Notes under the pieces: generated by a model
Databases searched by the model: none
Seen by the model: only the letters and a program-made list of their open reading frames with translations
Told to the model about the DNA's origin: nothing
Made by a program: the position numbers and the translations under genes
DNA from: a virus
Taxonomy: Duplodnaviria > Heunggongvirae > Uroviricota > Caudoviricetes
Reading direction: 5' to 3' (one strand)
DNA: 37,945 nucleotides
Virus record (IMG/VR): IMGVR_UViG_2526164597_000009
Part shown: positions 1 to 37,945 of the stretch, in pieces
Layout: the number at the start of each line of letters is the position of its first letter
Numbering within the stretch: position 1 is the stretch's first letter

Positions 1-1053
1 TTACGGGGTAATGCCAACCGCTGCCGCCACTTTGTCGCCACTTGGCAGCGTTGCCAGAGGATTGAAACGGAGCGCCGTTTCCAGATGATCCGGTGCCAGA
101 TGTGCGTAACGCATCGTCATTTTTATATCGTGATGTCCGAGAATTTTTTGTAAGGCCAGGATGTTTCCACCCGACATCATGAAGTGCGCCGCAAACGTAT
201 GGCGCAGAACGTGTGTGAGTTGACCGCGAGGGAGCACGATAGACGTTTTTTCCATCACGGATAAAAATTGAAAATAGCAGTCTGTGAAGAAATTGAACCC
301 ATCAAGCGCCATGATCTCTTCGTAAAGCTCTTTACTGATAGGGATGCTTCTGTTTTTCTTCCCCTTCGTTCTTACAAATGTAATTCGGTATTTGGTCACC
401 TGTGAACGAGTAAGATTTACGGCTTCTCGCCAGCGTGCGCCTGTGCTTAAGCATATCTTAACTACCAGTGCCAGAATTGGGTCCTGACGTTTGCAATCAG
501 CCAGTAATTCAACAATCTGCTCATGGGTAAGCCATGCCATCTCTTTTTCAGCGATGGTGAATTTTCGCATGTTCTCCAGTGGGTTCGGATACGACCATTC
601 GCCCAGGCGGGATAGTTCGCTAAAAACACTACTAAGATAGCTTTGCTCCAGGTTAATGGTGACCGGGCTTGCTCCTTTCTTCCATTTTTCGCTGAAGTAG
701 ATCTCTCCTGTCAGGCGTTTATCTCGATAGTGGGCAAACATTTTAGAGGTGAGATCGGTTGCAAGGGGATTGCCCAGAGCGTCAACTATCAACAGCAATT
801 TGTCATAGACATGCTGCCCAGCTGTCAGAGATTTACCATGTAGTTTGAACCATAGCTCAACCACGTCTTTCAGTGTTCGACGATCCACTGATTCACCCAG
901 CCAGGGCTTTGCTTCGGTTTCTTCCATCGTGTGACGCTCAAAAGCCAGAGCTTCACCTTTGGTGGCGAATTGTTTACGCACACGACGTCCACTACGTCCC
1001 GCGGGGTAACATTCGCATAGCCATTTTCCTGTGGTGAATTTTCGTACTGCCAT
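1..1053 (-). CDS. int: Tyrosine integrase (P2/186 Int family)
   Basis: ORF 1..1131 minus; start chosen at internal Met (MAVRKFTTGKW...) because GGAGG lies about 9 nt upstream; C-terminal HxxR...RYAHL catalytic region typical of P2-like integrases. Confidence 0.88.
   Translation of the reverse strand: MAVRKFTTGKWLCECYPAGRSGRRVRKQFATKGEALAFERHTMEETEAKPWLGESVDRRTLKDVVELWFKLHGKSLTAGQHVYDKLLLIVDALGNPLATDLTSKMFAHYRDKRLTGEIYFSEKWKKGASPVTINLEQSYLSSVFSELSRLGEWSYPNPLENMRKFTIAEKEMAWLTHEQIVELLADCKRQDPILALVVKICLSTGARWREAVNLTRSQVTKYRITFVRTKGKKNRSIPISKELYEEIMALDGFNFFTDCYFQFLSVMEKTSIVLPRGQLTHVLRHTFAAHFMMSGGNILALQKILGHHDIKMTMRYAHLAPDHLETALRFNPLATLPSGDKVAAAVGITP
19..40. repeat. Putative attL core (direct repeat cgctgccgccaCtttgtcgcca) lying inside the 3' end of int
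   Basis: 21 of 22 positions identical to 35091..35112; sits at the expected prophage boundary. Confidence 0.5.
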
Positions 1054-1078
1054 AAAAAATGCCCTCCAGTGGAGAGCA

Positions 1079-1106
1079 TTTTTACTGTATGTATAACCAG
1101 TGTCAA
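1079..1106 (-). promoter_or_regulatory. Candidate sigma70 promoter for int (-35 TTGACA, -10 TAAAAA) overlapping a near-consensus LexA-like box at 1085..1100
   Basis: Minus-strand TTGACA (plus 1101..1106), 16-bp spacer, TAAAAA; plus-strand CTGT-N8-CCAG at 1085..1100. Confidence 0.3.
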
Positions 1107-1142
1107 TGTATATGAATTGAGATTCATACATTGAGGTTAATT

Positions 1143-1748
1143 TTATCTTTCTACTTCCCAGCGTAGAGATTGCATTAACATAGCATAAATATTGAACAGG
1201 AAAGTTTTTAAAGTTAATACAAGGAACACTGCACTGCTTCCTACGAGTATATATAGTATTTGAACTCCAACAACTTTAGTGCAATGAGAAAACATTAAGG
1301 CTCTGAGTAATTTTGTAGCCAATCCATTTTCTTGCCCGAAAAGAAGGACTAAAAGATAGATAACAGACCAAAATATGAAATATATAAATACTCTCATAAA
1401 TACGCCATAAACATATTTTAAGTAACTTATCCCGTATAATGGATGCTTATACTCCATTAATGAAAGGAAAAGTTCAGGTTTATTTATGGTTGCAAATATT
1501 GTAAATCCAGTAATTAAAAAACCTAATGTTGTTGTAGTGAATCCGAATACTAAAGGTGTCCATTGTCTAATAGATGAAATTAACTCTGGTGATGAAGATA
1601 GACAAAAAGCATTAATAGATAATAATATCACTAATAATAATGTGAAATAAAAGTCAAATGAATTGACCTTTATTTTTTTAGTTAATTTGTAAACATCATG
1701 CAAAGATCGCTCTTTGGTCAGATCTTCTGGGTTGAATGTATATTTCAT
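1143..1748 (-). CDS. Hypothetical inner-membrane protein (about 4 predicted TM helices), last gene of the repressor-proximal cargo cassette
   Basis: 201-aa ORF in low-GC DNA; hydrophobic stretches such as LLLVILLSINAFCL, LVFGFTTTTLGFLITGFTIFATI, VFIYFIFWSVIYLLVLLFG, FLVLTLKTFLFNIYAML; start is 1 nt from upstream ORF stop. Confidence 0.6.
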   Translation of the reverse strand: MKYTFNPEDLTKERSLHDVYKLTKKIKVNSFDFYFTLLLVILLSINAFCLSSSPELISSIRQWTPLVFGFTTTTLGFLITGFTIFATINKPELFLSLMEYKHPLYGISYLKYVYGVFMRVFIYFIFWSVIYLLVLLFGQENGLATKLLRALMFSHCTKVVGVQILYILVGSSAVFLVLTLKTFLFNIYAMLMQSLRWEVER

Positions 1749-1749
1749 A

Positions 1750-2214
1750 CTATAGCCACCTAGAAATTATTGATGTTAACTTGGAAAAAATTTTAGTATA
1801 ATCTTCACGTTCTGGAATAATAATATTTCCTGCATCCTTTAATTCTGTGAATGCAGAATACGCCTCTTGAGCAGCTCTTTCCAAATCAGAACTAAGTTGT
1901 GGCCTTGATGCTTTTAGAGTAAAACTATCATTATTCCCTGATAGCCTTGCTCCGTGTTCATCTTTACCACTTATAATTACTTTAGAGTTGGCCATTCGGG
2001 TTGCACTTGTTGTTTTTTGAATGACGGCCTCAGAATTTAAACCATCTTCATTTTTATTTGTGTATACTAATTGAGCTTTACTACTATTAAGTTCTTCTTT
2101 TTCTTGTTCAATTTTCCTCCAGAAGCCATCAAGAGATATATTTTCACTATTTGTTGGCAATAACTCAATTGATAATCTATTAACAACAGAAAAGAGTTCA
2201 ACAAAATTGCTCAA
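1750..2214 (-). CDS. Hypothetical protein; probably the C-terminal part of a frameshifted about 348-aa gene (with 2294..2797)
   Basis: ORF begins with TTG and no good RBS; its frame is open upstream into the 3' end of the preceding ORF. Confidence 0.4.
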   Translation of the reverse strand: MSNFVELFSVVNRLSIELLPTNSENISLDGFWRKIEQEKEELNSSKAQLVYTNKNEDGLNSEAVIQKTTSATRMANSKVIISGKDEHGARLSGNNDSFTLKASRPQLSSDLERAAQEAYSAFTELKDAGNIIIPEREDYTKIFSKLTSIISRWL

Positions 2215-2293
2215 TGATCTTGGGTCTGTTAAGGGGGTAACCCGTAATTTGGGGGCTCCTAGTTTACGATAAATATCTTTTTTATACAGTCGA

Positions 2294-2797
2294 TCAATGT
2301 ATGATTTTTCTTTCTAATTCTTTTATTTTTTTTACTTCGTAATCCACAAAAGAATTATATCGCTGTGCAAGGCAATACTTGCTAGTATTTTCAAATTCTT
2401 CTAGGGTAGGGGCTCCAGAAACCTCTTTGCAAAGCATTAATCTGTGCTCATTAAGCATAAGAATAAAAATAGAGCTGGGGTGACTTTCTAGCGTCCTGTG
2501 ATCTCGAATTAATTGACCATCTTGAAATATTTGATCTCGTTTAAATATGGTCTTTTTTATAATGCGGCCACACAATGCAATTGTTGGAACTATAGGACCA
2601 ATAAAATCTGAATCTGTAGTATCTAACGTAATAATTTTTGTGTCAGTAAAGAAATATTCTGTATCTTTAAATTTTCTAACGTATTTTTGTGCGAAAAATG
2701 AAGGAAAAACAATGCAATCAAAAGCATCTAAGAGAACTTTGTCCTCTCCAAAATTTAAGGTATAGTTTGCAAATTCAATAGTTTTCGTAAAGCTCAT
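2294..2797 (-). CDS. Hypothetical protein; probably the N-terminal part of a frameshifted cargo gene
   Basis: 167-aa ORF in low-GC DNA starting 2 nt after the repressor stop; ends at an A5/T5 homopolymer (plus 2305..2309) where a 1-nt shift joins it to the next frame. Confidence 0.5.
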   Translation of the reverse strand: MSFTKTIEFANYTLNFGEDKVLLDAFDCIVFPSFFAQKYVRKFKDTEYFFTDTKIITLDTTDSDFIGPIVPTIALCGRIIKKTIFKRDQIFQDGQLIRDHRTLESHPSSIFILMLNEHRLMLCKEVSGAPTLEEFENTSKYCLAQRYNSFVDYEVKKIKELERKIIH

Positions 2798-2799
2798 TG

Positions 2800-3741
2800 T
2801 TAAACCCTTTTTCTAATTATTCCTTTAACTTTATTATTAAATTCCAAATCTTCTTTATCGCATTCAAAGCTATATTTTGTGTTTTCAACGCGGATGCGAT
2901 TGTTTGGAAGTTTAAATATGTCTCTAAAAGTAAATTCTCCGTTAATAGATACTAACCATAGACCATCGCTAAGATACTCCTCTTTGCTAATGATATATGA
3001 ATCATTTGCGGAATTAACTATATAGGGATGTTTTAAATTTTGAGGTAAAATTTCGCTCGAAACGATTAATTCTCTTTGATCAGTAAGTTTGCCGTCACGT
3101 AGATCATAGCAGTCTAATGTAAGCAACCCACTTAGCTTTGTTTGATTGGAATGCCCCTTACCAAAAGATAACCACTCGAGAGACACTCCTGTTTCTAAAC
3201 AGCATTGGATGATCCAGTCTGCCGGAAAAATGTCTCGCATGTATCGTGTAGCTAATGTGCTTTTTGAGATACCAAGGTGATCGGCTAAGGCTTGGCGCGT
3301 TTTGTAACCGTAAGCCTTAACAATTCGCTCTATTGCTGCTTTACCCCCTCGAGTGAAATCCATGTGGTTTTCATTATCGAACTTTATCGTGGGGGTGTGA
3401 ACTTCATTGCAAAATTCATCTGCAGACTGTTTTTCAGCATGCCGTTCTGGCGAAGGAGCTGGCACTCCTTCTTCAGCATCTAAACCAAATGCTAACCATT
3501 CGATTGATGCGCCAGTTTCCATTGAACATATAACAACCCAATCAGCAGGGAAGGTATCGCGTGCATATCTGTTAGCCATTGTACTTTGTGAAATACCAAG
3601 GTGGTTACAGAATGCTTGGCGTGATTTGAAACCATAGGCCATGAGTATTCTCTCAATGACTTTTTGCCCTCCTCGATTCTGCATGACCATGGCTTTCAGA
3701 TGATCTTCAACATGGCGAAATGTGATTTTATTAGTTGACAT
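2800..3741 (-). CDS. cI: Phage 186 CI-type immunity repressor with tandemly duplicated N-terminal HTH domain
   Basis: 313 aa; two about 65 percent identical modules (GGQKVIERILMAYGFKSRQAF...EWLAFG and GGKAAIERIVKAYGYKTRQAL...EWLSFG) then a C-terminal domain (GLWLVSINGEFTFRDIFKLPNNRIRVENTKYSFECD) resembling the 186 CI C-terminus as I recall it. Confidence 0.75.
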   Translation of the reverse strand: MSTNKITFRHVEDHLKAMVMQNRGGQKVIERILMAYGFKSRQAFCNHLGISQSTMANRYARDTFPADWVVICSMETGASIEWLAFGLDAEEGVPAPSPERHAEKQSADEFCNEVHTPTIKFDNENHMDFTRGGKAAIERIVKAYGYKTRQALADHLGISKSTLATRYMRDIFPADWIIQCCLETGVSLEWLSFGKGHSNQTKLSGLLTLDCYDLRDGKLTDQRELIVSSEILPQNLKHPYIVNSANDSYIISKEEYLSDGLWLVSINGEFTFRDIFKLPNNRIRVENTKYSFECDKEDLEFNNKVKGIIRKRV

Positions 3742-4600: not shown

Positions 4601-4777
4601 ATGCTTACTAAAGAACCATCATTTGCATCGCTGCTGGTAAAACAAAGTCCGGCAATGCACTACTACGGTCACGGCTGGATCATGGGGGAGGATGGTAAAC
4701 GCTGGCATCCGTGCCGTTCACAAGATGAATTGCTGGCAGAACTATCTACGAAAAAAGGGGGAACAAATGGCTATTGA
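4601..4777 (+). CDS. Small early phage protein, hypothetical
   Basis: 58-aa ORF with GAGG RBS; its stop overlaps the next gene start. Confidence 0.45.
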   Translation: MLTKEPSFASLLVKQSPAMHYYGHGWIMGEDGKRWHPCRSQDELLAELSTKKGGTNGY

Positions 4778-5409: not shown

Positions 5410-5636
5410 TGGCTGATGCAATGGATCTCGTACAGCAGCGCGTTGAAGAAGAACGCCAGCGTCATATCCGTGCTGCCCGTGCCAAAACGCCGGGAGTGTC
5501 CCGCGTGCTTTGCGTTGAGTGTGAAGCGCCAATTCCGCCAGCACGCCGCCGTGCCATTCCGGGTGTGCAACTTTGCATTACCTGTCAGGAAATCGCAGAG
5601 CTGAAAGGCAAACATTACAACGGAGGTGCTGTATGA
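5409..5636 (+). CDS. TraR/DksA-family C4 zinc-finger protein
   Basis: CVEC...(17 aa)...CITC zinc-finger spacing; start overlaps upstream stop (TGATG). Confidence 0.7.
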   Translation: MADAMDLVQQRVEEERQRHIRAARAKTPGVSRVLCVECEAPIPPARRRAIPGVQLCITCQEIAELKGKHYNGGAV

Positions 5637-6487
5637 GCACCATCCTGAAATGGGCGGGAAATAAAACTGCCATAATGTCCGAACTGAAAAAACATCTTCC
5701 TGCTGGCCCGCGACTGGTTGAACCTTTCGCGGGTTCCTGTGCTGTGATGATGGAGACGGATTATCCCAGCTATCTGGTTGCGGATATTAATCCTGATTTA
5801 ATCAACCTCTATAAAAAGGTTGCCGCTGATTGTGAATCGTTTATATCTCGCGCCAGAGTTTTATTTGAGATCGCAAACAGGGAGGTGGCTTATTACAACA
5901 TAAGGCAGGAGTTTAATTACTCAACTGAAATTACTGATTTCATGAGAGCGGTATATTTCCTGTATCTCAATCGTCACGGTTACCGTGGTTTATGTCGCTA
6001 TAACAAGAGCGGGCATTTCAACATTCCCTACGGTAATTATAAAAATCCGTATTTCCCTGAAAAAGAAATTCGCGCATTTGCAGAAAAGGCCCAGCGAGCA
6101 ACGTTTATCTGCGCCAGCTTTGATGAAACGCTGGCGATGTTGAAGGCGGGGGATGTGGTGTATTGCGATCCGCCGTATGACGGTACGTTTTCCGGCTATC
6201 ACACTGATGGTTTCACTGAAGATGACCAGTATCACCTGGCATCCGTTCTTGAACATCGAGCATCTGAAGGACATCCGGTCATTGTTTCTAACAGTGACAC
6301 GTCTTTGACCCGGTCTCTTTATCGTAATTTCACTCACCACTACATCAGGGCGAAACGCAGCATCGGCGTTGCAGCGGGGGAGGGAAAATTTGCAACAGAG
6401 ATGATTGCCACTAAATCTGCTAATTGGTTTAGTGCCGATTTTAGTAGGGGACGTGACTCTACTGTTATTTTCGGGGTGCAAGTGTGA
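5633..6487 (+). CDS. dam: DNA adenine methyltransferase (Dam-like, N6-adenine)
   Basis: ILKWAGNK N-terminus, [11 protein letters not shown]-binding motif, CDPPYDG catalytic motif; ATGA overlap with upstream gene. Confidence 0.88.
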
Positions 6488-7314
6488 AAGAAATGCACCA
6501 CGGAATTCATCATTTCCATGGGACGCCTGTCTGGGGAAGTGCTGGCGACGTTCATCGTATTGCGGTGAGCGGAGCTGGTGCTTTCGTCTCCTATGTACGA
6601 CCAGATCAGATTGCGGCGTCCATTCAGCACGCCCAGGTCGTTGGCATTGATAACGGCGCATTTTCTGCATGGGTGCGTGGGCTAAAAATTAACTGGAATG
6701 ATTTTTATAAATGGCTCCTGAACTATTACCACCATCCTAAGGTCGCTTTTTTTGTCATTCCTGATGTTGTGGACGGAGGTGAACGTGACAATGATGCCCT
6801 GATAAACGAAGTTCCGAAAATGTTCTACGGGAAGGCAACTCCCGTCTGGCATCTGCACGAGTCAATCGATCGGCTTATCGAGCTATGTCGTGAATGGCCT
6901 CGTGTCTGCTTTGGATCGTCTGGTGAATATGCGGCTATTAGAACTGCGCACTGGCATCGTCGTATGCAGGACGCTTTTGAAGCAATTTATTGCCGACACA
7001 ATTTCAAAACAGCTGTTCATGGTTTGCGCATGCTTGACGGTCGTGTGTTGGGAAATTACCCACTGGCGACTGCCGACAGTACAAATCTTGCCTGCAATGT
7101 CCCCAAATTTAATAGCAAATATCCTGAGCTTACGCGGGCTATTCAGGAGGCTGAGTATTCGCGCAATCTGACGGAAAAGGAGCTGAAAGCTGTCATTCTG
7201 AAAAACCGTTGCGCAATTTTAAAAGGTGCAATTGAAGCTGTTCGCCCACCTTCAGTTTCTGACTGGCTGTCGAATGGTTTGCAGCCTTCACAGCTCGAAC
7301 TGGAGATTGCGTAA
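6484..7314 (+). CDS. Hypothetical enzyme translationally coupled to Dam and A; possible DNA-modification function
   Basis: 276-aa ORF with GTG start overlapping dam stop; motifs [35 protein letters not shown] faintly recall the TGT/DpdA TIM-barrel pattern (unverified). Confidence 0.55.
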
Positions 7315-10272: not shown

Positions 10273-10538
10273 GAAACGTTGCTGGCGTCTGAACTTGCTT
10301 CTGACGTCAGCAACGTTGAACAACTAGTTTAGTGGGGCATTAGTCATGGGGTAAAATACAGTAACCATTATTTTCACTTCCGCTCAGATTTAACCGAACG
10401 TTAGTTTTGCTACGTATGATGGGCTGCAAATTACCTTTTGGGATTTGTGATAGATACGAAAATCCTATTAGATGCTTGTTAGACCGGAAGCGCCACTTCG
10501 AACGAAAAGTAATGGCCACTTATGCCGGTTTAAAAGCC

Positions 10539-11069
10539 TTAACCTTGTATAGTTATTTGAATATTTTCTTCATTAACACCAAAGTATAGGGCTAGCCCTG
10601 CTTTTGCCTCCTGAAGTGTTAACGGCTTAACTACATTTTCTTCTTCTTCTTCGTACTCATCACCCGCTTGATCGACAATCGAATTAGTCGGGGTTAATTT
10701 TGGAAGAGCTTTAAATTCCAACTTGTCAGCCTCAATGCCAATGTCTTTGAGGTTGCGATAAGATACGGGATTCCGATTGCCATCCCATTGTCCTGGGATG
10801 TCAATTTCAGCATAAGAATTGATGTTTATGATCCAGCGTTTAGGGTTTTCTGGAGCCCTGCTTACTCCCGAGATTCGACCGATCATAAAAGCATGATGAT
10901 GTTTTGCTTCTTGTGATCCCCAGTCCTTTCTCGAATTTTGTACACAAACTAAATATTCGTGCTTAGCTGCATGGCTGGCGTCAAGTCTCCATGCTTGGCT
11001 TCCCCCTGTGTTCAAAATCTCTGTTAAACCACGAGCAGTAAGTACAGTAATACAGTTGGTAGTAGCCAT
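10539..11069 (-). CDS. Hypothetical cargo protein (orphan gene in the cos-proximal variable region)
   Basis: 176-aa ORF on the opposite strand to neighbours, in low-GC DNA; acidic DEYEEEEEN tract; no family recognised. Confidence 0.5.
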   Translation of the reverse strand: MATTNCITVLTARGLTEILNTGGSQAWRLDASHAAKHEYLVCVQNSRKDWGSQEAKHHHAFMIGRISGVSRAPENPKRWIININSYAEIDIPGQWDGNRNPVSYRNLKDIGIEADKLEFKALPKLTPTNSIVDQAGDEYEEEEENVVKPLTLQEAKAGLALYFGVNEENIQITIQG

Positions 11070-11385
11070 TGAATTGTGACCCCGTCTTTTTTAGAGAAAT
11101 ACTATTGATGAATGTAGTTTACGTATTTTTTTATGGAGTAGTCAAGTTAGTATTATGCTCATTATTGGCTGTTTGTTGAGTATTGTGAGTTAGTACTTTG
11201 TGTAGTACCTCTTGATTTATGAGAATTAAATCTAAGTTATGACAAAGGGAGGCAGGGGGAACGCGCAGCGCAAGGTGGACAGGAGGCCATAAGGACTCAC
11301 TTGAAGTAAGAAAAGATCGATAAAGCAACAATGCATGTCTATGCCGCATGAATTCGCATGATCGTTTGAGGATCGTTTTAGCTGA

Positions 11386-11414
11386 GGCCCGCCAGGAATG
11401 GCGGGCTTTTGTTT
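11386..11414 (+). terminator. Rho-independent terminator (stem GCCCGCC/GGCGGGC followed by TTTTGTTT)
   Basis: 7-bp GC stem, 6-nt loop, T-rich tail on the plus strand; about 40 bp upstream of cos. Confidence 0.6.
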
Positions 11415-11455
11415 ATGTCATGCAAGTGCATGAAAACCACTACATAAAGCGGGCT

Positions 11456-11474
11456 GGCGTGGCGGGGATACGAG
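11456..11474. other. Candidate cos site (cohesive-end sequence GGCGTGGCGGGGATACGAG)
   Basis: Resembles the P2/186 19-nt cohesive end (GGCGAGGCGGGGAAAGCAC as recalled); located upstream of Q 3' end in the A-to-Q interval. Confidence 0.45.
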
Positions 11475-11787
11475 CGCGCGCAACGTGCATGATATGGCAA
11501 TATGCATAACCTAGTTGATGAGATGTCTTGCCACTAATAATATTAAAACGATTGAAACATGTGTTCCGTCCGTACCATAATCTTTAAGTGGGTGCAGGGC
11601 TAAATTGTATGATGAAGTATCATATTGCTTCTGAATACTAATGGATAAGTACACGATTGATGTGATGTTATTGCTGACTATTTTTTGTTCTAGTCTTACC
11701 GAAGACCCAACACGGGAGAAGAAATAGAAATTAATTGCGTGCCCTTTAAGTGCACAATTTAGCAACAATTTAAAAATGAGGTGAACA

Positions 11788-12186
11788 GTGAAAGAGTTGG
11801 AACTATATAATCTGAATTTTTATTTTAGCTTGTGTACTTCAGATGAAGTGGAAAGAATAAAAAATGTATCAAACTCGGCGGATTACTTACTCAAAATTAG
11901 GGCTAATGCAACTATAGAACATATCAGAATCCATCGGGTATTACTAGCTGCAATGCGTAGAAGTGGAAATAATTGGTCATTAAGTAGTTATTTTGATGAT
12001 TCTCCTTTTGAGGATTATATTGATGATGTTTCTGAACAGTACAAAGAACATCTAGAAGGGATCTCTGGCGGATTTGTATTTTGCAATGATCCGAATGGTC
12101 GGATATTAAAAACTGATTATGGATGTGTGATTACTATTTCAGAATCACTTAAGTATTTTTTGTATTACATGAATTTAGCTTTTTAA
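11788..12186 (+). CDS. Hypothetical protein; likely N-terminal part of a frameshifted HEXXH-peptidase gene
   Basis: 132-aa ORF with GTG start and AGGTG RBS; ends just after a T6 run (12156..12161) where a -1 shift enters the downstream frame. Confidence 0.45.
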   Translation: MKELELYNLNFYFSLCTSDEVERIKNVSNSADYLLKIRANATIEHIRIHRVLLAAMRRSGNNWSLSSYFDDSPFEDYIDDVSEQYKEHLEGISGGFVFCNDPNGRILKTDYGCVITISESLKYFLYYMNLAF

Positions 12187-12251
12187 CTTTTGATGATTGT
12201 GATGTTCCTGATGATGTAAGAATTGCTGCATTAAGAATTGCAATAAGAACT

Positions 12252-12869
12252 ATGATGCAAAAGGAATCAATGGATTTTGAAATTGATCCACGTGGTATAA
12301 TTCCATCACAAATTGATATGGAAATTAGGTACCATGTAAATGATGTGATGAAGTTTATTGTTGGTCATGAATATTCACATTACGTACTTGGGCATTTGAA
12401 TGATGAATCAACTTTCGAGGCGAGTTTTTTAACCTCTATTGATACGGAAGAAGTTAAACACAAATTTTTCTCCTATGACCAAAAGGATGAACTAGCAGCA
12501 GATATTCATTCTTTACGAATGTTGTCGCTTTCTAAAGAAAAATTGGCTGGGTTAATTCAAAAGGTTTGTATCTACTTCGTGTTCATGGATATATATTCAA
12601 ATGTAAAAGATCAGGTGTCACCTTCACTTAATTTCACAAAGACTCACCCTGAACCAATGGATAGGCTTAGAAATATCATAGAAGAGTTTAAGGAGGAAGT
12701 GGAAATTGATTATAATGAAATGGATAAGTTCATCAGATCAGGTGAGGTCATAAAGGGTTTCTTGCAAGATGATGCTGGGTATAATTTTGATGAAATATAT
12801 GATTTTTATGGATCAATTTATTTAGGTCAGTGGAGGGGAAAGCCGTTAATAGATAGGGTAGACTATTGA
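12252..12869 (+). CDS. HEXXH zinc metallopeptidase-like protein (ImmA/IrrE-like motif); likely C-terminal part of a split about 360-aa gene
   Basis: GHEYSHYVLGH motif near residue 38; the frame is open 33 codons upstream of the ATG without a start codon or RBS. Confidence 0.55.
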   Translation: MMQKESMDFEIDPRGIIPSQIDMEIRYHVNDVMKFIVGHEYSHYVLGHLNDESTFEASFLTSIDTEEVKHKFFSYDQKDELAADIHSLRMLSLSKEKLAGLIQKVCIYFVFMDIYSNVKDQVSPSLNFTKTHPEPMDRLRNIIEEFKEEVEIDYNEMDKFIRSGEVIKGFLQDDAGYNFDEIYDFYGSIYLGQWRGKPLIDRVDY

Positions 12870-12883
12870 GTTGATGTTTATAT

Positions 12884-12930
12884 CCCAAATGACAATCAAA
12901 AATAGTGAACTTCTGTGACTGTCATTTGGG
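12884..12930. terminator. Hairpin between convergent genes (possible bidirectional terminator)
   Basis: 11-bp perfect inverted repeat CCCAAATGACA/TGTCATTTGGG with a 25-nt loop, between the peptidase gene and the Q 3' end. Confidence 0.35.
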
Positions 12931-13003
12931 TGGTGATTGTAATTTTTATTTGCAGTGGTTATGCATCTTTGGTTTAAGGTTTTTCTATAGAGAGAATGCT
13001 CGT

Positions 13004-20948: not shown

Positions 20949-21387
20949 ACTGCAGAAGGTGGACGACTGGCTTAGTGCCTTACTGGCGAATCTGGAACCA
21001 GTCGCAAGAAGCCGCATGATGCGCCAGCTGGCGCAGGAACTGCGCCGGACACAGCAGCAGAATATCAGGATGCAGCGCAATCCAGATGGCAGCAGTTATG
21101 AACCGCGCAAGGTCACGGCGCGCAGTAAAAAAGGCCGCATCAAACGTCAGATGTTTGCAAAGCTGCGCACCACCAAATACCTGAAAACCGCCGCCAGCGC
21201 CGACTCTGCCAGCGTACAGTTTGAAAGTAAGGTGCAGCGCATTGCCCGCGTTCACCATTATGGCCTGCGCGATCGCGTCAGCCGCAAAGGACCGGAAGTG
21301 CGTTACGCAGAGCGTCGTTTGTTGGGTCTTAATGGTGAGTCTTACGTTCTAACTCTTGATATATTGAATAGATTCCTTCTGTCTTGA
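20941..21387 (+). CDS. S: Tail completion protein (P2 gpS-like); the last about 17 codons run into low-GC inserted DNA
   Basis: 148 aa; GTG start overlapping R; 3' end overlaps the convergent cargo gene. Confidence 0.75.
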   Translation: MAELQKVDDWLSALLANLEPVARSRMMRQLAQELRRTQQQNIRMQRNPDGSSYEPRKVTARSKKGRIKRQMFAKLRTTKYLKTAASADSASVQFESKVQRIARVHHYGLRDRVSRKGPEVRYAERRLLGLNGESYVLTLDILNRFLLS

Positions 21388-22135
21388 ATTCACCATATGC
21401 CCAATGAATTGCATTTTTTTGTTCAGTCAGAATATATTTCCTAACTTTTTTAGAATAGTGAATGGTCAGTATAAAACCCAAAGAAATCCATAATAGAATA
21501 AATATGGTTGTTGGGGCAAAGGAATAGATAAAGAATTTGTCTTTAACGAAATTCTTGACTTCTTCATCAATGTAAGCATTCCCTTCATCAGTGGTTAGTA
21601 GTTTACAAAGAATTTCTTTATGCTCGATAGTTAATGATTTGTACTTCTCTGTACTGGCAGAGGATGACTCTTCGCAATCATCCTTTGATATTTCCCAATC
21701 AGGAGTGGTTAATATTGTAGCTGCAGTCGCCAGTTTTTTTGACATATAAAATGATTCACCGGATTTTATCCAATAAAGCAATGTGCTATTTGGTGGGGTT
21801 CTAATGGCTTGGATGAAAACTGGACCAAAAATATAAATTGCACACAAAAAAAGAAGTGAAAAGAGAACCGTGATTGATTTTTCAGCCCATGTGATAGTAG
21901 GCAGCCTTTTTAATGATATTCGTATAAGAAAAAAATTTAATATAAACGCAGGTATTCCTGATTTTTTCAAAATTACATCATGAGATTTTCTATATTTGAA
22001 TAGTGCTCTTATAACTATCGTCACCAAAGTTATAACAGCTCCAATAATGGAAATCCATGCGGCAAGTGCCGCTGCCGGGGTGTTTAAAAATTCAGCATTA
22101 AATATATTAGAACTTATTGGATTCATAACACTCAT
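21329..22135 (-). CDS. Hypothetical membrane protein moron between S and V (P2 orf30 position)
   Basis: 268 aa in low-GC DNA on the opposite strand to the late operon; TM segments near both termini (WISIIGAVITLVTIVI, FIYSFAPTTIFILLWISLGFILTI). Confidence 0.6.
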   Translation of the reverse strand: MSVMNPISSNIFNAEFLNTPAAALAAWISIIGAVITLVTIVIRALFKYRKSHDVILKKSGIPAFILNFFLIRISLKRLPTITWAEKSITVLFSLLFLCAIYIFGPVFIQAIRTPPNSTLLYWIKSGESFYMSKKLATAATILTTPDWEISKDDCEESSSASTEKYKSLTIEHKEILCKLLTTDEGNAYIDEEVKNFVKDKFFIYSFAPTTIFILLWISLGFILTIHYSKKVRKYILTEQKNAIHWAYGEFKTEGIYSIYQELERKTHH

Positions 22136-22174
22136 TTATCCACCTATTGGTTGTTTTTTATCCTTTTATCAATT

Positions 22175-22192
22175 TGTACCATCGATACCACA
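22175..22192. promoter_or_regulatory. Candidate Ogr-binding site (TGT-N12-ACA) upstream of V
   Basis: TGTaccatcgataccACA about 50 bp upstream of the V start codon. Confidence 0.35.
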
Positions 22193-22238
22193 ATTTGCAA
22201 GAAGTTATAAACAAGTTTTCAGCTGTCATCATATATCT

Positions 22239-22817
22239 ATGAACGCACAACTAACCGAAATCATGCGCCTTATCACCAATCTGATCCGCATAGGTGTAGT
22301 CACCGAAGTGGACCGGGAAAACTGGCTTTGTCGGGTGAAAACGGGCGACCTTGAAACCAACTGGATTAACTGGCTGACGCTGCGCGCGGGTAATGCCCGC
22401 ACATGGTGGCGACCATCGGAAGGTGAGCAGGTGGTACTGCTGAGTCTGGGCGGCAATCTGGAAACAGCCTTTGCTTTGCCCGCCATCTATTCTAATCAGT
22501 TTGCACCGCCGTCGCAGTCGGTGGACGCCTGTGTGACAGAACATCCTGATGGTGGCTGGTTTGAATACGAACCCACTACCGGGCGCTGGTATGTCAGGGG
22601 CATCAAATCCATGGTCATTGAGGCTGCCGACAACATCACCCTGAAAACCAGTGAGTTTGTGCTGGAGGCTGACCGCACGCGTATTAACAGCGAAGTAGTG
22701 ATCAATGGTGGCGTTACCCAGGGCGGCGGTGCAATGAGTTCTAACGGAATTGTGGTTGATGCACATCAGCATACTGGCGTCCTGAAAGGCGGCGACACAA
22801 CCGGAGGCCCGGTATGA
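22239..22817 (+). CDS. V: Baseplate assembly protein / spike (P2 gpV-like)
   Basis: 193 aa from MNAQLTEIMRLI...; longer ORF-track version begins in the inserted low-GC DNA. Confidence 0.85.
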   Translation: MNAQLTEIMRLITNLIRIGVVTEVDRENWLCRVKTGDLETNWINWLTLRAGNARTWWRPSEGEQVVLLSLGGNLETAFALPAIYSNQFAPPSQSVDACVTEHPDGGWFEYEPTTGRWYVRGIKSMVIEAADNITLKTSEFVLEADRTRINSEVVINGGVTQGGGAMSSNGIVVDAHQHTGVLKGGDTTGGPV

Positions 22818-23173
22818 CGCTTTATAGCGGGATGAACAATACCAGCGGCAAAGTCATTACTGATATTGACCATCTGCGCCAGTCGGTGCGGGACATTCTG
22901 CTGACGCCGCAGGGTAGCCGCATTGCCCGTCGGGAATATGGTTCCCTGCTGTCGGCACTGATAGATCAGCCACAAAATCCGGCGTTACGCCTGCAGGTCA
23001 TGTCGGCAGTGTATGTGGCGCTGAGTCGCTGGGAGCCACGGCTGACGCTGGATTCCATCACCATCAACAGCCATTTTGACGGTTCAATGGTGGTGGAGCT
23101 GAGCGGGCGGCGTAATAACGGTGTGCCTGTTTCCCTTTCCGTATCAACAGGAGCAGAGAATGGCAGTGATTGA
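22814..23173 (+). CDS. W: Baseplate protein (P2 gpW-like)
   Basis: 119 aa; stop/start overlap with V. Confidence 0.85.
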   Translation: MTLYSGMNNTSGKVITDIDHLRQSVRDILLTPQGSRIARREYGSLLSALIDQPQNPALRLQVMSAVYVALSRWEPRLTLDSITINSHFDGSMVVELSGRRNNGVPVSLSVSTGAENGSD

Positions 23174-34871: not shown

Positions 34872-35090
34872 ATGATGATTTGCCCACTGTGTGGAAGTGC
34901 CGCCCATACTCGCAGCAGTTTTCAGGTATCTTCATTGACCAAAGAGCGTTACAACCAGTGCCAGAATATTAACTGCAGCCATACTTTTGTTACCCATGAA
35001 ACTTTTGTTCGTTCGATTGCAACGCCAAAAGAGTCAAATCCGGTTCAGCCGCATCCAATGAAATCAGGACAGGTGGCGCTCTCTCTTTGA
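34872..35090 (+). CDS. ogr: Late gene transcriptional activator, Ogr/Delta zinc-finger family
   Basis: 72 aa, CPLC...CQNINC zinc finger; matches recalled P2 Ogr (MFHCPLCQHAAHARTS...KERYHQCQNVNC). Confidence 0.85.
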   Translation: MMICPLCGSAAHTRSSFQVSSLTKERYNQCQNINCSHTFVTHETFVRSIATPKESNPVQPHPMKSGQVALSL

Positions 35091-35112
35091 CGCTGCCGCC
35101 ATTTTGTCGCCA
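35091..35112. repeat. Putative attR core (direct repeat cgctgccgccaTtttgtcgcca)
   Basis: 21 of 22 positions identical to 19..40; immediately after the ogr stop; host DNA follows. Confidence 0.5.
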
Positions 35113-35170
35113 TCGATAAAAAACAGTGCTTCTAACATCATGATTTTAAAAGGCATAAATTTCAGGCAAC

Positions 35171-35214
35171 AAAAAACCCATCAACCTTGAACCGAAATGG
35201 CGGGGTTGATGGGC
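35171..35214 (-). terminator. Candidate Rho-independent terminator downstream of ybjL
   Basis: 10-bp inverted repeat CCCATCAACC/GGTTGATGGG followed on the minus strand by TTTTTT; loop is long (17 nt). Confidence 0.4.
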
Positions 35215-35325
35215 TCCACAAAATGGGGACATCAAAGAAAAGCAGTGGCACTAATTAAGACTGATGCCCTGCGGAAAAGTTCTGCGGTTGTGCAAAAAAA
35301 TTTCATTTTCAGGGCAACTTCAGTT

Positions 35326-37011
35326 TTATCCTAATCCTGGCCATACCATGACGATGATTGTCCCTGCCAGCGTCAGCAGGACGTTGGCGATTGCGTAGGT
35401 GCCCGCATAGCCCAGCGCAGGGATGTTACTGCGAGCTGTATCACTGATGATCTCCATTGCCGGCGCGCAGGTGCGTGCGCCCATCATTGCGCCGAACAAC
35501 AGTGCGCGGTTCATTCGCAATACATAAGCACCGAACAAGAAACAGATAACCACGGGCACAAGACTGACAATTAATCCGGCAATCAACATCTGACCGCCAA
35601 TCGCGCCCAGGCCGTTATTAATACCGCTACCGGCGCTCAGACCAACGCCTGCCATAAACACCATCAAGCCGAACTCTTTCACCATGCTTAATGCACCTTG
35701 CGGAATGTAACCGAAGGTCGGGTGGTTAGCACGCATAAAGCCCAGCATAATTCCGGCGAATAACAACCCGGCAGCGTTCCCCATGCCGAAACTGAATGTG
35801 CTGAACTGGAAGGTGATCATCCCGATCATCAGCCCAATAACAAAGAAGGCGCAGAATGCCAGCAGGTCAGTGACCTGGCTGTGAATCGAGATAAAGCCGA
35901 TGCGATCGGCGATGGTTTTTACGCGGCGGGCATCGCCGCTGACTTGTAAAACGTCACCTTTGTTAAGCACGACGTTGTCATCTATCGGCATCTCAATCTG
36001 GCTACGAATGACGCGGTTAAGGAAGCAACCGTGATCGGTCAACTTCAGTTGTGCGAGACGTTTACCTACAGCGTTATGGTTTTTAACGACCACTTCTTCA
36101 GTGACGATACGCATGTCGAGAAGGTCACGATCGAAAACTTCTTTACCGTTACGGAAGCTGGGATCGAGTCGGGCATGGGCGTCGGGATAGCCTACCAACG
36201 CTATTTCATCGCCCATTTGTAGCACGGCATCACCGTCTGGATTTGCCAGAATCCCGTTACGTCGAATACGTTCAATGTAGCAGCCGGTTTGTCGATAAAT
36301 ACCCAGTTCACGCAGATTTTTGCCGTCGGTCCAGGCCACCAGCTCCGGGCCGACGCGATAGGCGCGGATCACCGGTAAATAAACCTTACGGTTGGCATCA
36401 GTGTCCAGGCCACGTTCGCGGGCGATTTGCTGGGCGCTGGTCTGTAAGTCCTGATGCTGCAATTTCGGCAAGTAACGCGCACCAACAATCAAACTCACCA
36501 GACCGATTAAATAGGTTAAGGCATACCCGAGGCTCAGATTATCCAGTGCCAGTGAGAGCTGCCTGCTTTCCATGCCGAAATGACGCAGTGTATCGCCAGC
36601 ACCGACCAGAACCGGTGTCGACGTCATAGAGCCTGCTAACATACCGGCCGTCAGGCCAATATCCCAGCCAAACAGCTTACCTAACCCTAAGGCGATCACC
36701 AGCGCACTGCCAACCATCACCAGTGCTAACATTAGGTAATTTTTCCCATCGCGAAAAAAAATGGAAAAAAAGTTCGGTCCGGCTTCGACCCCGACGCAGA
36801 AAATAAACAGCATAAAGCCAAGATTAAGCGCATCGGTGTTAATGCTGAAATGTTGTTGGCCTAATAACAGCGATACGACTAAAACGCCAATGGAATTACC
36901 CAGTTGGATCGAACCAAGTCGTAACTTTCCGAGACATAGCCCAAGCGCGAGGACCACAAATAATAACAGAATGTAATTCCCATTTAACAATTCGGCGACG
37001 TTTATATTCAC
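35326..37011 (-). CDS. ybjL: Putative transport protein YbjL (AAE-family transporter with central TrkA-C-like domains)
   Basis: 561-aa ORF recognised as E. coli YbjL by length and flanking gene order (ybjM, grxA); multiple TM segments. Confidence 0.88.
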
Positions 37012-37280
37012 GGAGGCTAACTTCTTGTTTACTAGTAAGCTGTTGAAAGAAATGGTAATTTACGATAATGTTTTTTACCAGAATTCAGGGCGCAGATTCA
37101 TTCAGCGCACCTAAACGATAGTAAAGTAACAATATATTTTACTAGTGTAATCACATTAGGTATCAACGGCTATATGAATTGCGTTGGCCTATATTAGCAT
37201 GGAATGCGAAGCGGCTTTATCTTACTGAACGCCACACTGGCGAAAAATGTGTTCGATAGACGCAGTGTCAGGAGGAACGA

Positions 37281-37658
37281 GTGAAACATAAACAACGTTG
37301 GGCGGGGGCAATCTGCTGTTTTGTCCTCTTCATTGTGGTGTGCCTTTTTCTGGCGACGCACATGAAAGGCGCTTTTCGGGCTGCCGGGCATCCTGAAATC
37401 GGCTTGCTATTTTTCATTCTTCCTGGAGCAGTTGCCAGTTTCTTTTCACAGCGTAGAGAAGTCCTGAAACCTCTATTTGGCGCAATGCTGGCGGCACCCT
37501 GTTCAATGCTCATTATGCGGCTGTTTTTTTCACCGACGCGCTCATTCTGGCAAGAGCTGGCATGGTTACTAAGCGCGGTGTTCTGGTGTGCGCTGGGGGC
37601 ACTGTGTTTCTTATTTATCAGTAGTTTGTTTAAACCACAGCACAGAAAAAATCAGTAA
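37281..37658 (+). CDS. ybjM: Inner membrane protein YbjM
   Basis: 125-aa hydrophobic protein with GTG start between ybjL and grxA, as in E. coli K-12. Confidence 0.78.
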   Translation: MKHKQRWAGAICCFVLFIVVCLFLATHMKGAFRAAGHPEIGLLFFILPGAVASFFSQRREVLKPLFGAMLAAPCSMLIMRLFFSPTRSFWQELAWLLSAVFWCALGALCFLFISSLFKPQHRKNQ

Positions 37659-37678
37659 AGCCCTCAACGCGAGGGCTT
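37659..37678. terminator. Hairpin between convergent ybjM and grxA (possible bidirectional terminator)
   Basis: GCCCTC-aacgc-GAGGGC immediately after the ybjM stop. Confidence 0.4.
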
Positions 37679-37687
37679 GTCAGACGA

Positions 37688-37945
37688 TCAGGCGTCCAGA
37701 TTTTCTTTCACCCATGCAGCAAAATCGGTATAGCCGCCGATATGTTGCTGATCGACAAAAATCTGCGGCACGGTTTCTACGGGTTTACCTGCCTTTTGTT
37801 GTAGATCTTCTTTAGTGATCCCTTCCGCACGAATATCTACATACTGATACTGAAAATCATCGCGTTCATTGCTCAATTTCTCAGCCAGATCTTTTGCACG
37901 CACACAGTAAGGGCAACCCGAACGACCAAAAATAACGGTTTGCAT
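37688..37945 (-). CDS. grxA: Glutaredoxin 1
   Basis: 85 aa, MQTVIFGRSGCPYCVRAKDLAEKL... with CPYC active site; matches E. coli GrxA as recalled. Confidence 0.9.
   Translation of the reverse strand: MQTVIFGRSGCPYCVRAKDLAEKLSNERDDFQYQYVDIRAEGITKEDLQQKAGKPVETVPQIFVDQQHIGGYTDFAAWVKENLDA

Follow-up and report, generated by a model that had tools for sequence, protein, structure and literature searches.

RexAB of phage lambda is the oldest known abortive-infection system, and both its trigger and the way in which RexA activates RexB are unresolved. Five Rex-type systems, lambda's own included, have been described experimentally (PMC12894663), and other, sequence-unrelated pairs of a RexA-fold protein and a four-transmembrane (TM) protein defend against phages in experiments (PMC6426596, PMC6426606, PMC12894663). 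Likewise, a defence hotspot located between the repressor gene cI and the integrase gene int has been described in K139-like phages by Rousset et al. (PMC9122126), so that neither Rex-like modules of prophages nor hotspots in the cI-int interval are new concepts. Here, we analyzed a stretch of viral DNA of 37,945 nucleotides (IMG/VR record IMGVR_UViG_2526164597_000009, Caudoviricetes), in the following referred to as the window, which contains a P2/186-like prophage. The analysis focuses on two genes, termed A and B, that are located between cI and int of this prophage. The data suggest that this cargo, carried by a 186-like prophage of E. coli within its lysogenic operon, is probably a RexAB-type anti-phage module acting by abortive infection or exclusion.

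A Low-GC Cargo Separates cI and int

The cargo comprises 1.66 kb of DNA with a G+C content of ~31% and is encoded on the same strand as both flanking genes (coordinates are given in Table 1). The genes are tightly packed. The stop codon TAA of cI is followed by the two nucleotides CA and the ATG of gene A, and a single T separates the stop codon TAG of gene A from the ATG of gene B. The G+C content amounts to 0.297 for gene B and 0.328 for gene A, compared with 0.481 for int and 0.513 for the rest of the window. In contrast, in phage 186 (NC_001317) the cI gene (22433-23011) abuts int (21423-22433) with no gene between them, and both lie within the annotated pL/pE lysogenic operon. In these respects the initial annotation was accurate: it had described an AT-rich, same-strand insert of ~1.65 kb, its tight packing and the contrast with phage 186, as well as a content of two open reading frames (ORFs) of 167 and 154 amino acids (aa) and a 201-aa protein with about four TM helices, all in line with the gap lengths, the coordinates of NC_001317, the ORF list, the TM scan and the structural model.

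The interior of the cassette contains no convincing terminator and no excess of promoter-like sites. Given the lack of a credible internal terminator, the spacing of 1-2 nucleotides and the organization of the 186 operon, we infer that cI, A, B and int are read on one lysogenic transcript, with cI presumably as the opening gene and int, downstream of the cargo, presumably as the final one.

The repressor of the window comprises two tandem Phage_CI_repr helix-turn-helix (HTH) domains (~residues 25-87 and 135-197) followed by a Phage_CI_C domain; the 192-aa cI protein of phage 186 has one Phage_CI_repr HTH domain. The duplication is common to two sister prophages (L020 and L021), and other prophages carrying A and B encode single-HTH cI proteins of 189-224 aa.

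The Predicted Structure of the Gene A Product Resembles RexA

A profile derived from 24 homologues of gene A retrieved 702 representatives with E <= 1e-3 from a library of 1.84 billion proteins, nearly all of which are 320-350 aa in length and match from end to end. The AlphaFold model of the reconstructed protein, built on the family alignment, reached a predicted local distance difference test score (pLDDT) of 82 and a predicted template modelling score (pTM) of 0.83. When this model was compared with the PDB using Foldseek, the best match was lambda RexA (8TWQ), with E-values of 6.7e-6 for chain B and 2.4e-4 for chain A and a probability of 1.00. The RexA chains were the only PDB matches below E = 1e-3, and the next match, an unrelated protein, had an E-value of 0.07. 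Moreover, RexA was the top solved-structure match in two independent programs and outranked RdgC and kinetochore proteins. [quoted passage not shown] The structural neighbours of gene A are those that Adams et al. reported for RexA (PMC11077077). The initial annotation had compared the locus with cI-rexA-rexB as an analogy of placement and architecture; for the soluble partner, the fold match upgrades this analogy to structural homology.

At the sequence level, the link between gene A and RexA appears marginal. Comparison of the gene A family profile (99 sequences) with a RexA profile (28 sequences) by hhalign yielded E = P = 0.025 and a score of 23.5 over 74 columns, aligning residues 243-318 of gene A with residues 189-264 of RexA, which correspond to the C-terminal domains. 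This score narrowly exceeded those of all block-shuffled controls (40/40; maximum 22.8). Against the single lambda RexA sequence, the gene A profile gave a weak match of 20-50 columns.

Scans of Pfam, NCBIfam and PADLOC models revealed no match for either cargo protein, and when PADLOC-DB 2.0.0 was applied to the locus neither protein was detected, with no family reaching E <= 1. The gene A family profile likewise had no match at E <= 10 among the PDB sequences. The sole match of gene A in PHROGs was phrog_10040 (3.5e-9), a family of unknown function, and a literature search with the two RefSeq protein accessions returned nothing.

Gene B Encodes a Conserved Four-TM Protein

A Kyte-Doolittle scan revealed four hydrophobic segments in the gene B product, and the AlphaFold model consists of four long helices (pLDDT 84). 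The charges of the loops predict a cytoplasmic location for both termini and for the central loop, and the N-terminus and central loop are rich in K and R. This topology and charge layout corresponds to that described for gp31 of phage Sbash. An alignment of 13 proteins revealed several invariant or near-invariant motifs, namely ExSLxD at the cytoplasmic N-terminus, LGFLIxGFTIF in TM2, LKY in the central loop, LK(T/S)FxFN in TM4 and LRWE at the C-terminus. As a small four-TM protein encoded directly downstream of a RexA-like gene, gene B conforms to the RexB-type layout and is presumed to be the inner-membrane effector.

Genes A and B Are Linked in Diverse Genomic Contexts

Comparison of the int-cI interval across related prophages revealed that the A-B pair recurs. 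In all 37 related loci with downstream sequence available, a gene B homologue (phmmer E <= 1e-39) is located directly 3′ of gene A with a spacing of -14 to +7 nucleotides. These loci derive from Enterobacterales, Vibrio, Photobacterium, Marinomonas, Alcanivorax, Rhodocyclales and viral contigs. Of the 38 related loci analyzed, 22 have the order cI-A-B-int, among them prophages of Silvania and Enterobacter cloacae with gene A products 43-77% identical to that of the window. In two viral contigs (L029 and L030) the pair is positioned downstream of int (cI-int-A-B), towards the end of the prophage, indicating that the two-gene module moves as a unit between hotspots.

Moreover, 14 of the 38 loci contain the pair without a cI or int relative nearby. 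In one of them (L007) it directly follows hsdM-hsdS-hsdR, in a second (L012) it directly follows hsdR and is flanked by genes for AAA_13 and RhuM proteins, in a third (L009) it adjoins hsdM-hsdS, and in a fourth (L017) it adjoins an SNF2 helicase gene and a NOV_C gene. [quoted passage not shown]

Sister prophages that share the rcdA integration site hold other cargo in the cI-int slot, such as the 589-aa P2 Old protein (PADLOC Old, 5.6e-234). The Old gene (L020:1627-3396) is full length and found in many genomes. Other genomes carry in this slot a gene for a 325-aa protein (L021:1635-2612) with weak coiled-coil and membrane hints in Pfam and no match in PADLOC, which is a further candidate defence gene. 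P2 Old shares slot and strand with the A-B pair, and differs from it as a single ATPase-Toprim nuclease that is unrelated in sequence and mechanism. A 2026 survey also noted an int-primase hotspot in P2-like prophages (PMC13586616). Taken together, the coupling of A and B, the R-M neighbourhoods and the presence of Old in the same slot lend contextual support to a putative defence role of the pair.

The exchanged segment is larger than the cargo. In blastn comparisons with the two sister prophages (L020 and L021), similarity to the window is lost between ~1112-1117 and 3155-3191. Consequently, the low-GC cargo delimited by the initial annotation (1143-2797) is confirmed as such, whereas the full variable block also takes in the cI C-terminal domain (G+C 0.32), with one recombination boundary inside cI. 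A functional coupling of this domain with the cargo, to which their joint exchange had pointed, was considered and rejected, as the similarity of the domain does not track A-B: its identity to the window's domain is 25-59% in A-B-linked copies and 26-29% in others.

The Window Copy of Gene A Contains Two Homopolymer Contractions

In the window, gene A is split by two contractions of one nucleotide each in A-runs of the coding strand, from A6 to A5 near 2304 and from A9 to A8 near 2325 (T6 to T5 at ~2304 and T9 to T8 at ~2325 on the plus strand), both within the lysine-rich segment ...EVKKNKRIRKKK... The same region is present in eleven complete E. coli genomes, ten of which are 99.6-99.8% identical and one 97.9% identical to the window, and measures 4,102 bases in all eleven compared with 4,100 in the window. 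In these genomes both ORFs form one gene of 1,050 nucleotides encoding WP_040038354.1, whose name in annotations by the Prokaryotic Genome Annotation Pipeline (PGAP) varies between records, being either "hypothetical" or "DUF4747 family protein". An intact cassette is present, for example, in E. coli 98193 (NZ_CP173591.1, 527629-529285). The initial annotation had correctly taken the split ORFs for one frameshifted soluble gene; its length of about 348 aa has to be corrected to the 349 aa of the intact relatives, and in place of a single frameshift the alignments reveal two separate 1-nucleotide deletions.

Gene A is intact in all 31 other near-identical copies examined: the deletions occur in 0/11 E. 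coli genomes, 0/13 Klebsiella phage records (4LV2017 and relatives) and 0/7 near-identical IMG/VR contigs. A third homopolymer contraction relative to close relatives, A7 to A6 in a plus-strand A-run at ~4750, is located in the fil region. This contraction shifts the frame of fil and that of the DUF5347 gene overlapping it, and an in-frame insertion of 3 nucleotides is present at 4659-4661. Within the first 6.4 kb, 3 of 13 A/T runs of at least 6 bases are contracted, compared with 0 of 27 in the other aligned blocks (hypergeometric p ~0.03). We also considered whether the slippery A-run represents a programmed frameshift or phase-variation site; this was rejected because the A9 run occurs only in the closest relatives and is not conserved in more distant homologues.

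The copy of gene A in the window is either inactive or mis-sequenced. Chances are about even that the module in the source genome is a dead pseudogene remnant without function or that the frameshift is a sequencing artefact. The two A-run contractions in gene A, their absence from the 31 other copies and the additional contraction at 4750 speak for this; on the other hand, gene B and the flanking genes are intact, and the contractions are confined to the first 6.4 kb, a distribution that uniform sequencing error would not readily explain. Probably, the source prophage carried a Rex-type defence system whose sensor gene is frameshifted or mis-sequenced.

Comparison with Known Rex-Type Systems

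As in lambda RexA/RexB (PDB 8TWQ; PF15969, PF15968), the window encodes a soluble protein followed by a small four-TM protein on the strand of cI and directly downstream of it, and RexA is the best solved-structure match of the gene A product, with a weak resemblance of the C-terminal sequences. Differences are apparent in size (349 aa for A versus 279 aa for RexA, and 201 aa for B versus 144 aa for RexB), in the conserved motifs peculiar to B and in the type of prophage, which is P2/186-like and not lambdoid. Moreover, the exclusion function of the A-B pair is putative. For RexABpp (PP_5643/PP_5644) of the P. putida prophage P1, defence, DNA binding and B-dependent membrane damage have been determined experimentally, and HHpred matched PP_5643 to 8TWQ with a probability above 95%. 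The actinobacteriophage systems Sbash gp30/gp31, CarolAnn gp44/gp43 and Butters gp30/gp31 likewise consist of a cytoplasmic protein of ~340-370 aa and a four-TM protein that are expressed lysogenically, and the CarolAnn pair is co-transcribed with the repressor; the hosts of these phages belong to phyla other than that of the window prophage.

A further likeness concerns the 'DUF4747/CarolAnn' type, as PGAP and precomputed Pfam tables label the gene A family DUF4747; the latter give PF15931.11 for the protein P0001 and four relatives. The local model PF15931.10 matches 2 of the 99 gene A family representatives, with a best E-value of 2.6e-4. For CarolAnn gp44, a weak HHpred match to DUF4747 is found in the literature. 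The shared label is nevertheless weak because gp44 itself has no DUF4747 match by hmmscan.

Judged from its architecture, its context and the fold of A, the A-B pair is of the RexAB type, and by sequence it lies outside the Pfam RexA and RexB families. Rex-type systems are mutually unrecognisable by sequence, and for this reason we class the pair within the known Rex-type kind and not as a new kind.

Several observations weigh against this assignment. Global template modelling scores (TM-scores) of the gene A model to 8TWQ are low (0.31-0.36), with no full superposition. Since RexA is known to hinge, such values would be expected if the domains of the modelled protein were oriented differently from those in RexA. 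The hhalign probability for gene A and RexA is just 1.9%. The intact 349-aa gene A product does not match the RexA hidden Markov models (HMMs) of Pfam (E <= 10) or PADLOC (E <= 1), and gene B does not match the RexB HMMs (Pfam PF15968, PADLOC RexB), whereas lambda RexA is readily recognized by PF15969 (1e-97) and the PADLOC RexA model (9e-110), and the PADLOC models recognize both lambda proteins. Alignment of gene B with lambda RexB by hhalign gave no signal (E 0.4), and a search of the viral models in BFVD with the gene B structure revealed no significant match, the best E-value being 0.86. Lambda RexB was not in the top 50 of this search, and a Sbash protein of 165 aa, which is the reported size of gp31, ranked fourth with a non-significant E-value of 2.3, which is no more than a hint. 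The view of the initial annotation that the cargo is a candidate Rex-like pair is supported, with the RexA fold present in the soluble partner; the membrane partner has no detectable homology to RexB. Furthermore, hhalign detected no similarity to the CarolAnn proteins (A versus gp44, E 0.6; B versus gp43, E 1), PF15931.10 has no match to gene A of the window, and gene A is frameshifted in the window. RexA-fold proteins also serve in non-defence roles, as RdgC does in recombination, and the putative anti-phage phenotype of the A-B family rests on analogy with other Rex-type systems. Finally, RexA itself modulates the lambda switch (PMC11077077).

Proposed Mechanism and Alternative Functions

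The following model draws for its functional steps on lambda RexAB, Sbash gp30/31, CarolAnn gp44/43 and P. putida RexABpp. In the lysogen, genes A and B would be read together with cI from a pL-type promoter. The product of gene A, a cytoplasmic protein with the RexA/RdgC fold and a K/R-rich linker helix, would probably act as a dimeric, non-specific DNA binder and as the sensor of infection. Its cue might be, as proposed for RexA-type proteins, a phage protein or a DNA-protein intermediate of replication or recombination. Upon infection by a heterologous phage, activated A would trigger B via its conserved cytoplasmic motifs, and B, as the effector, would damage or depolarise the membrane, leading to growth arrest and abortion of the infection. 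By analogy, DNA binding by A, the interaction of A with B and membrane damage may thus be expected for this pair.

The main alternative within the same kind of system is the arrangement of mycobacteriophage Butters gp30/gp31, in which, according to the summaries in PMC12894663 and PMC7542560, the logic is reversed: the RexA-fold protein A would be the antiviral or toxic effector, and B would sequester or restrain it until infection. The strongly basic linker of gene A (residues 131-182, pI 9.8) and a fold shared with the DNA binders RexA and RdgC would suit such a role. Nevertheless, we consider it unlikely here, given that the membrane protein is the effector in four of the five described Rex-type systems (PMC12894663) and that the high conservation of gene B, including LGFLIxGFTIF in TM2, suggests an activity within the membrane over that of a simple anchor.

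Somewhat less probable still is that the module mainly serves the lysis-lysogeny switch or the induction of its own prophage and not the defence against other phages. Its position directly behind cI and the inclusion of the cI C-terminal domain in the exchangeable block would fit this role, as would the observation that RexA of lambda acts on the bistable CI/Cro switch, shifting it towards lytic growth, independently of RexB (PMC11077077). Yet phage 186 functions with an empty cI-int slot. The pair is also present outside prophages, with three of the 14 loci lacking a cI or int relative nearby being located beside type I R-M genes, and there is no correspondence between the type of cI C-terminal domain and the presence of the cargo; both observations make a role confined to the prophage switch unlikely.

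Least probable is a non-Rex membrane function, be it superinfection exclusion (Sie), a block of DNA entry, a module of the holin or addiction type or a moron unrelated to defence, with the likeness to RexA reflecting a shared ancient DNA-binding fold: the lack of detectable homology of gene B to RexB, the marginal sequence similarity of gene A and the use of the RexA/RdgC/IML3 fold in unrelated processes (PMC11077077) would agree with it, whereas RexA is clearly the top structural match of A, entry-blocking Sie proteins usually need no obligate cytoplasmic partner of ~340 aa, and defence after entry is indicated by the R-M neighbourhoods and by the exchange with Old.

With the RexAB-type module as the preferred reading, the cassette adds a widespread and uncharacterised clade, found in prophages of E. 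coli, Klebsiella and Enterobacter as well as within the R-M islands of marine and environmental Proteobacteria, with the gene A family comprising ~700 clusters at 50% identity. Tentatively, the A-B pair might even constitute the main Gram-negative branch of Rex-type immunity, with a membrane effector unrelated to RexB that the HMMs used for defence annotation miss, although we regard this as doubtful at present. If true, it could be the first Rex-type system beyond that of lambda that is open to study with the complete set of coliphage tools, and it would help to address a question that has stood for 70 years, namely what a RexA-type sensor recognizes and how it gates its membrane partner, by a mechanism that might differ from the ion-channel model of RexB. 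If the module is active, it would provide a genetically tractable E. coli system for comparing Rex sensing and expand the catalogue of cI-int hotspot cargo in P2/186-like phages, and the A-B family would belong in defence-annotation tools.

Prophage Setting and Other Variable Regions

Table 1. Features of the prophage discussed in the text (window coordinates).
Feature	Position	Strand	Basis
int, tyrosine integrase	1..1053 as annotated in relatives; longest ORF 1..1131	-	Pfam Int_N and Phage_integrase
gene B, 201-aa four-TM membrane protein	1143..1748	-	ORF, TM scan, AlphaFold model
gene A, soluble protein, 349 aa when intact	1750..2797	-	read here as two ORFs
gene A, 154-aa ORF	1750..2214	-	ORF list
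gene A, 167-aa ORF	2294..2797	-	ORF list
frameshift sites of gene A	2304..2326	-	alignments with L001 and L019
cI repressor, 313 aa	2800..3741	-	Pfam PF07022, two stretches (2.5e-57); PF16452 (1.3e-19)
exchangeable low-GC block: cargo and cI C-terminal domain	~1112..~3190	n/a	blastn against L020/L021, composition
hotspot ORF, 176 aa	10539..11069	-	no PADLOC match
hotspot ORF, 132 aa	11788..12186	+	no PADLOC match
hotspot ORF, 205 aa	12252..12869	+	no PADLOC match; weak Peptidase_M48 (3.3e-6)

The prophage is integrated between rcdA and ybjL, in the order ybjJ-rcdA, prophage, ybjL-ybjM-grxA (window 34900-37945 and the flanks of L001 and L019). Relative to its best E. coli match, the window is a mosaic with 99.3% identity over the immunity region and 94-97% elsewhere, and several segments are replaced.

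The interval from the replication gene to the portal gene (window 10300-13000) corresponds to the classical P2 defence hotspot and contains three ORFs (Table 1). At this position, relatives carry genes for an AIPR/AbiU-like protein (L019) or TIR-domain proteins. A further region (5573-7314, plus strand) encodes a Dam-like orphan methyltransferase (PADLOC oMTase, 2.7e-110) followed by a 276-aa ORF with no match in Pfam or PADLOC; at the position of this ORF, L019 encodes a PAPS-reductase-domain protein resembling SspD/DndC. Lastly, a 268-aa ORF (21329-22135, minus strand) is located on the opposite strand among tail and lysis genes and has a match to DUF6216 (7e-12) as well as a weak one to an HP1 holin model. 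This position is variable and differs also from L019.

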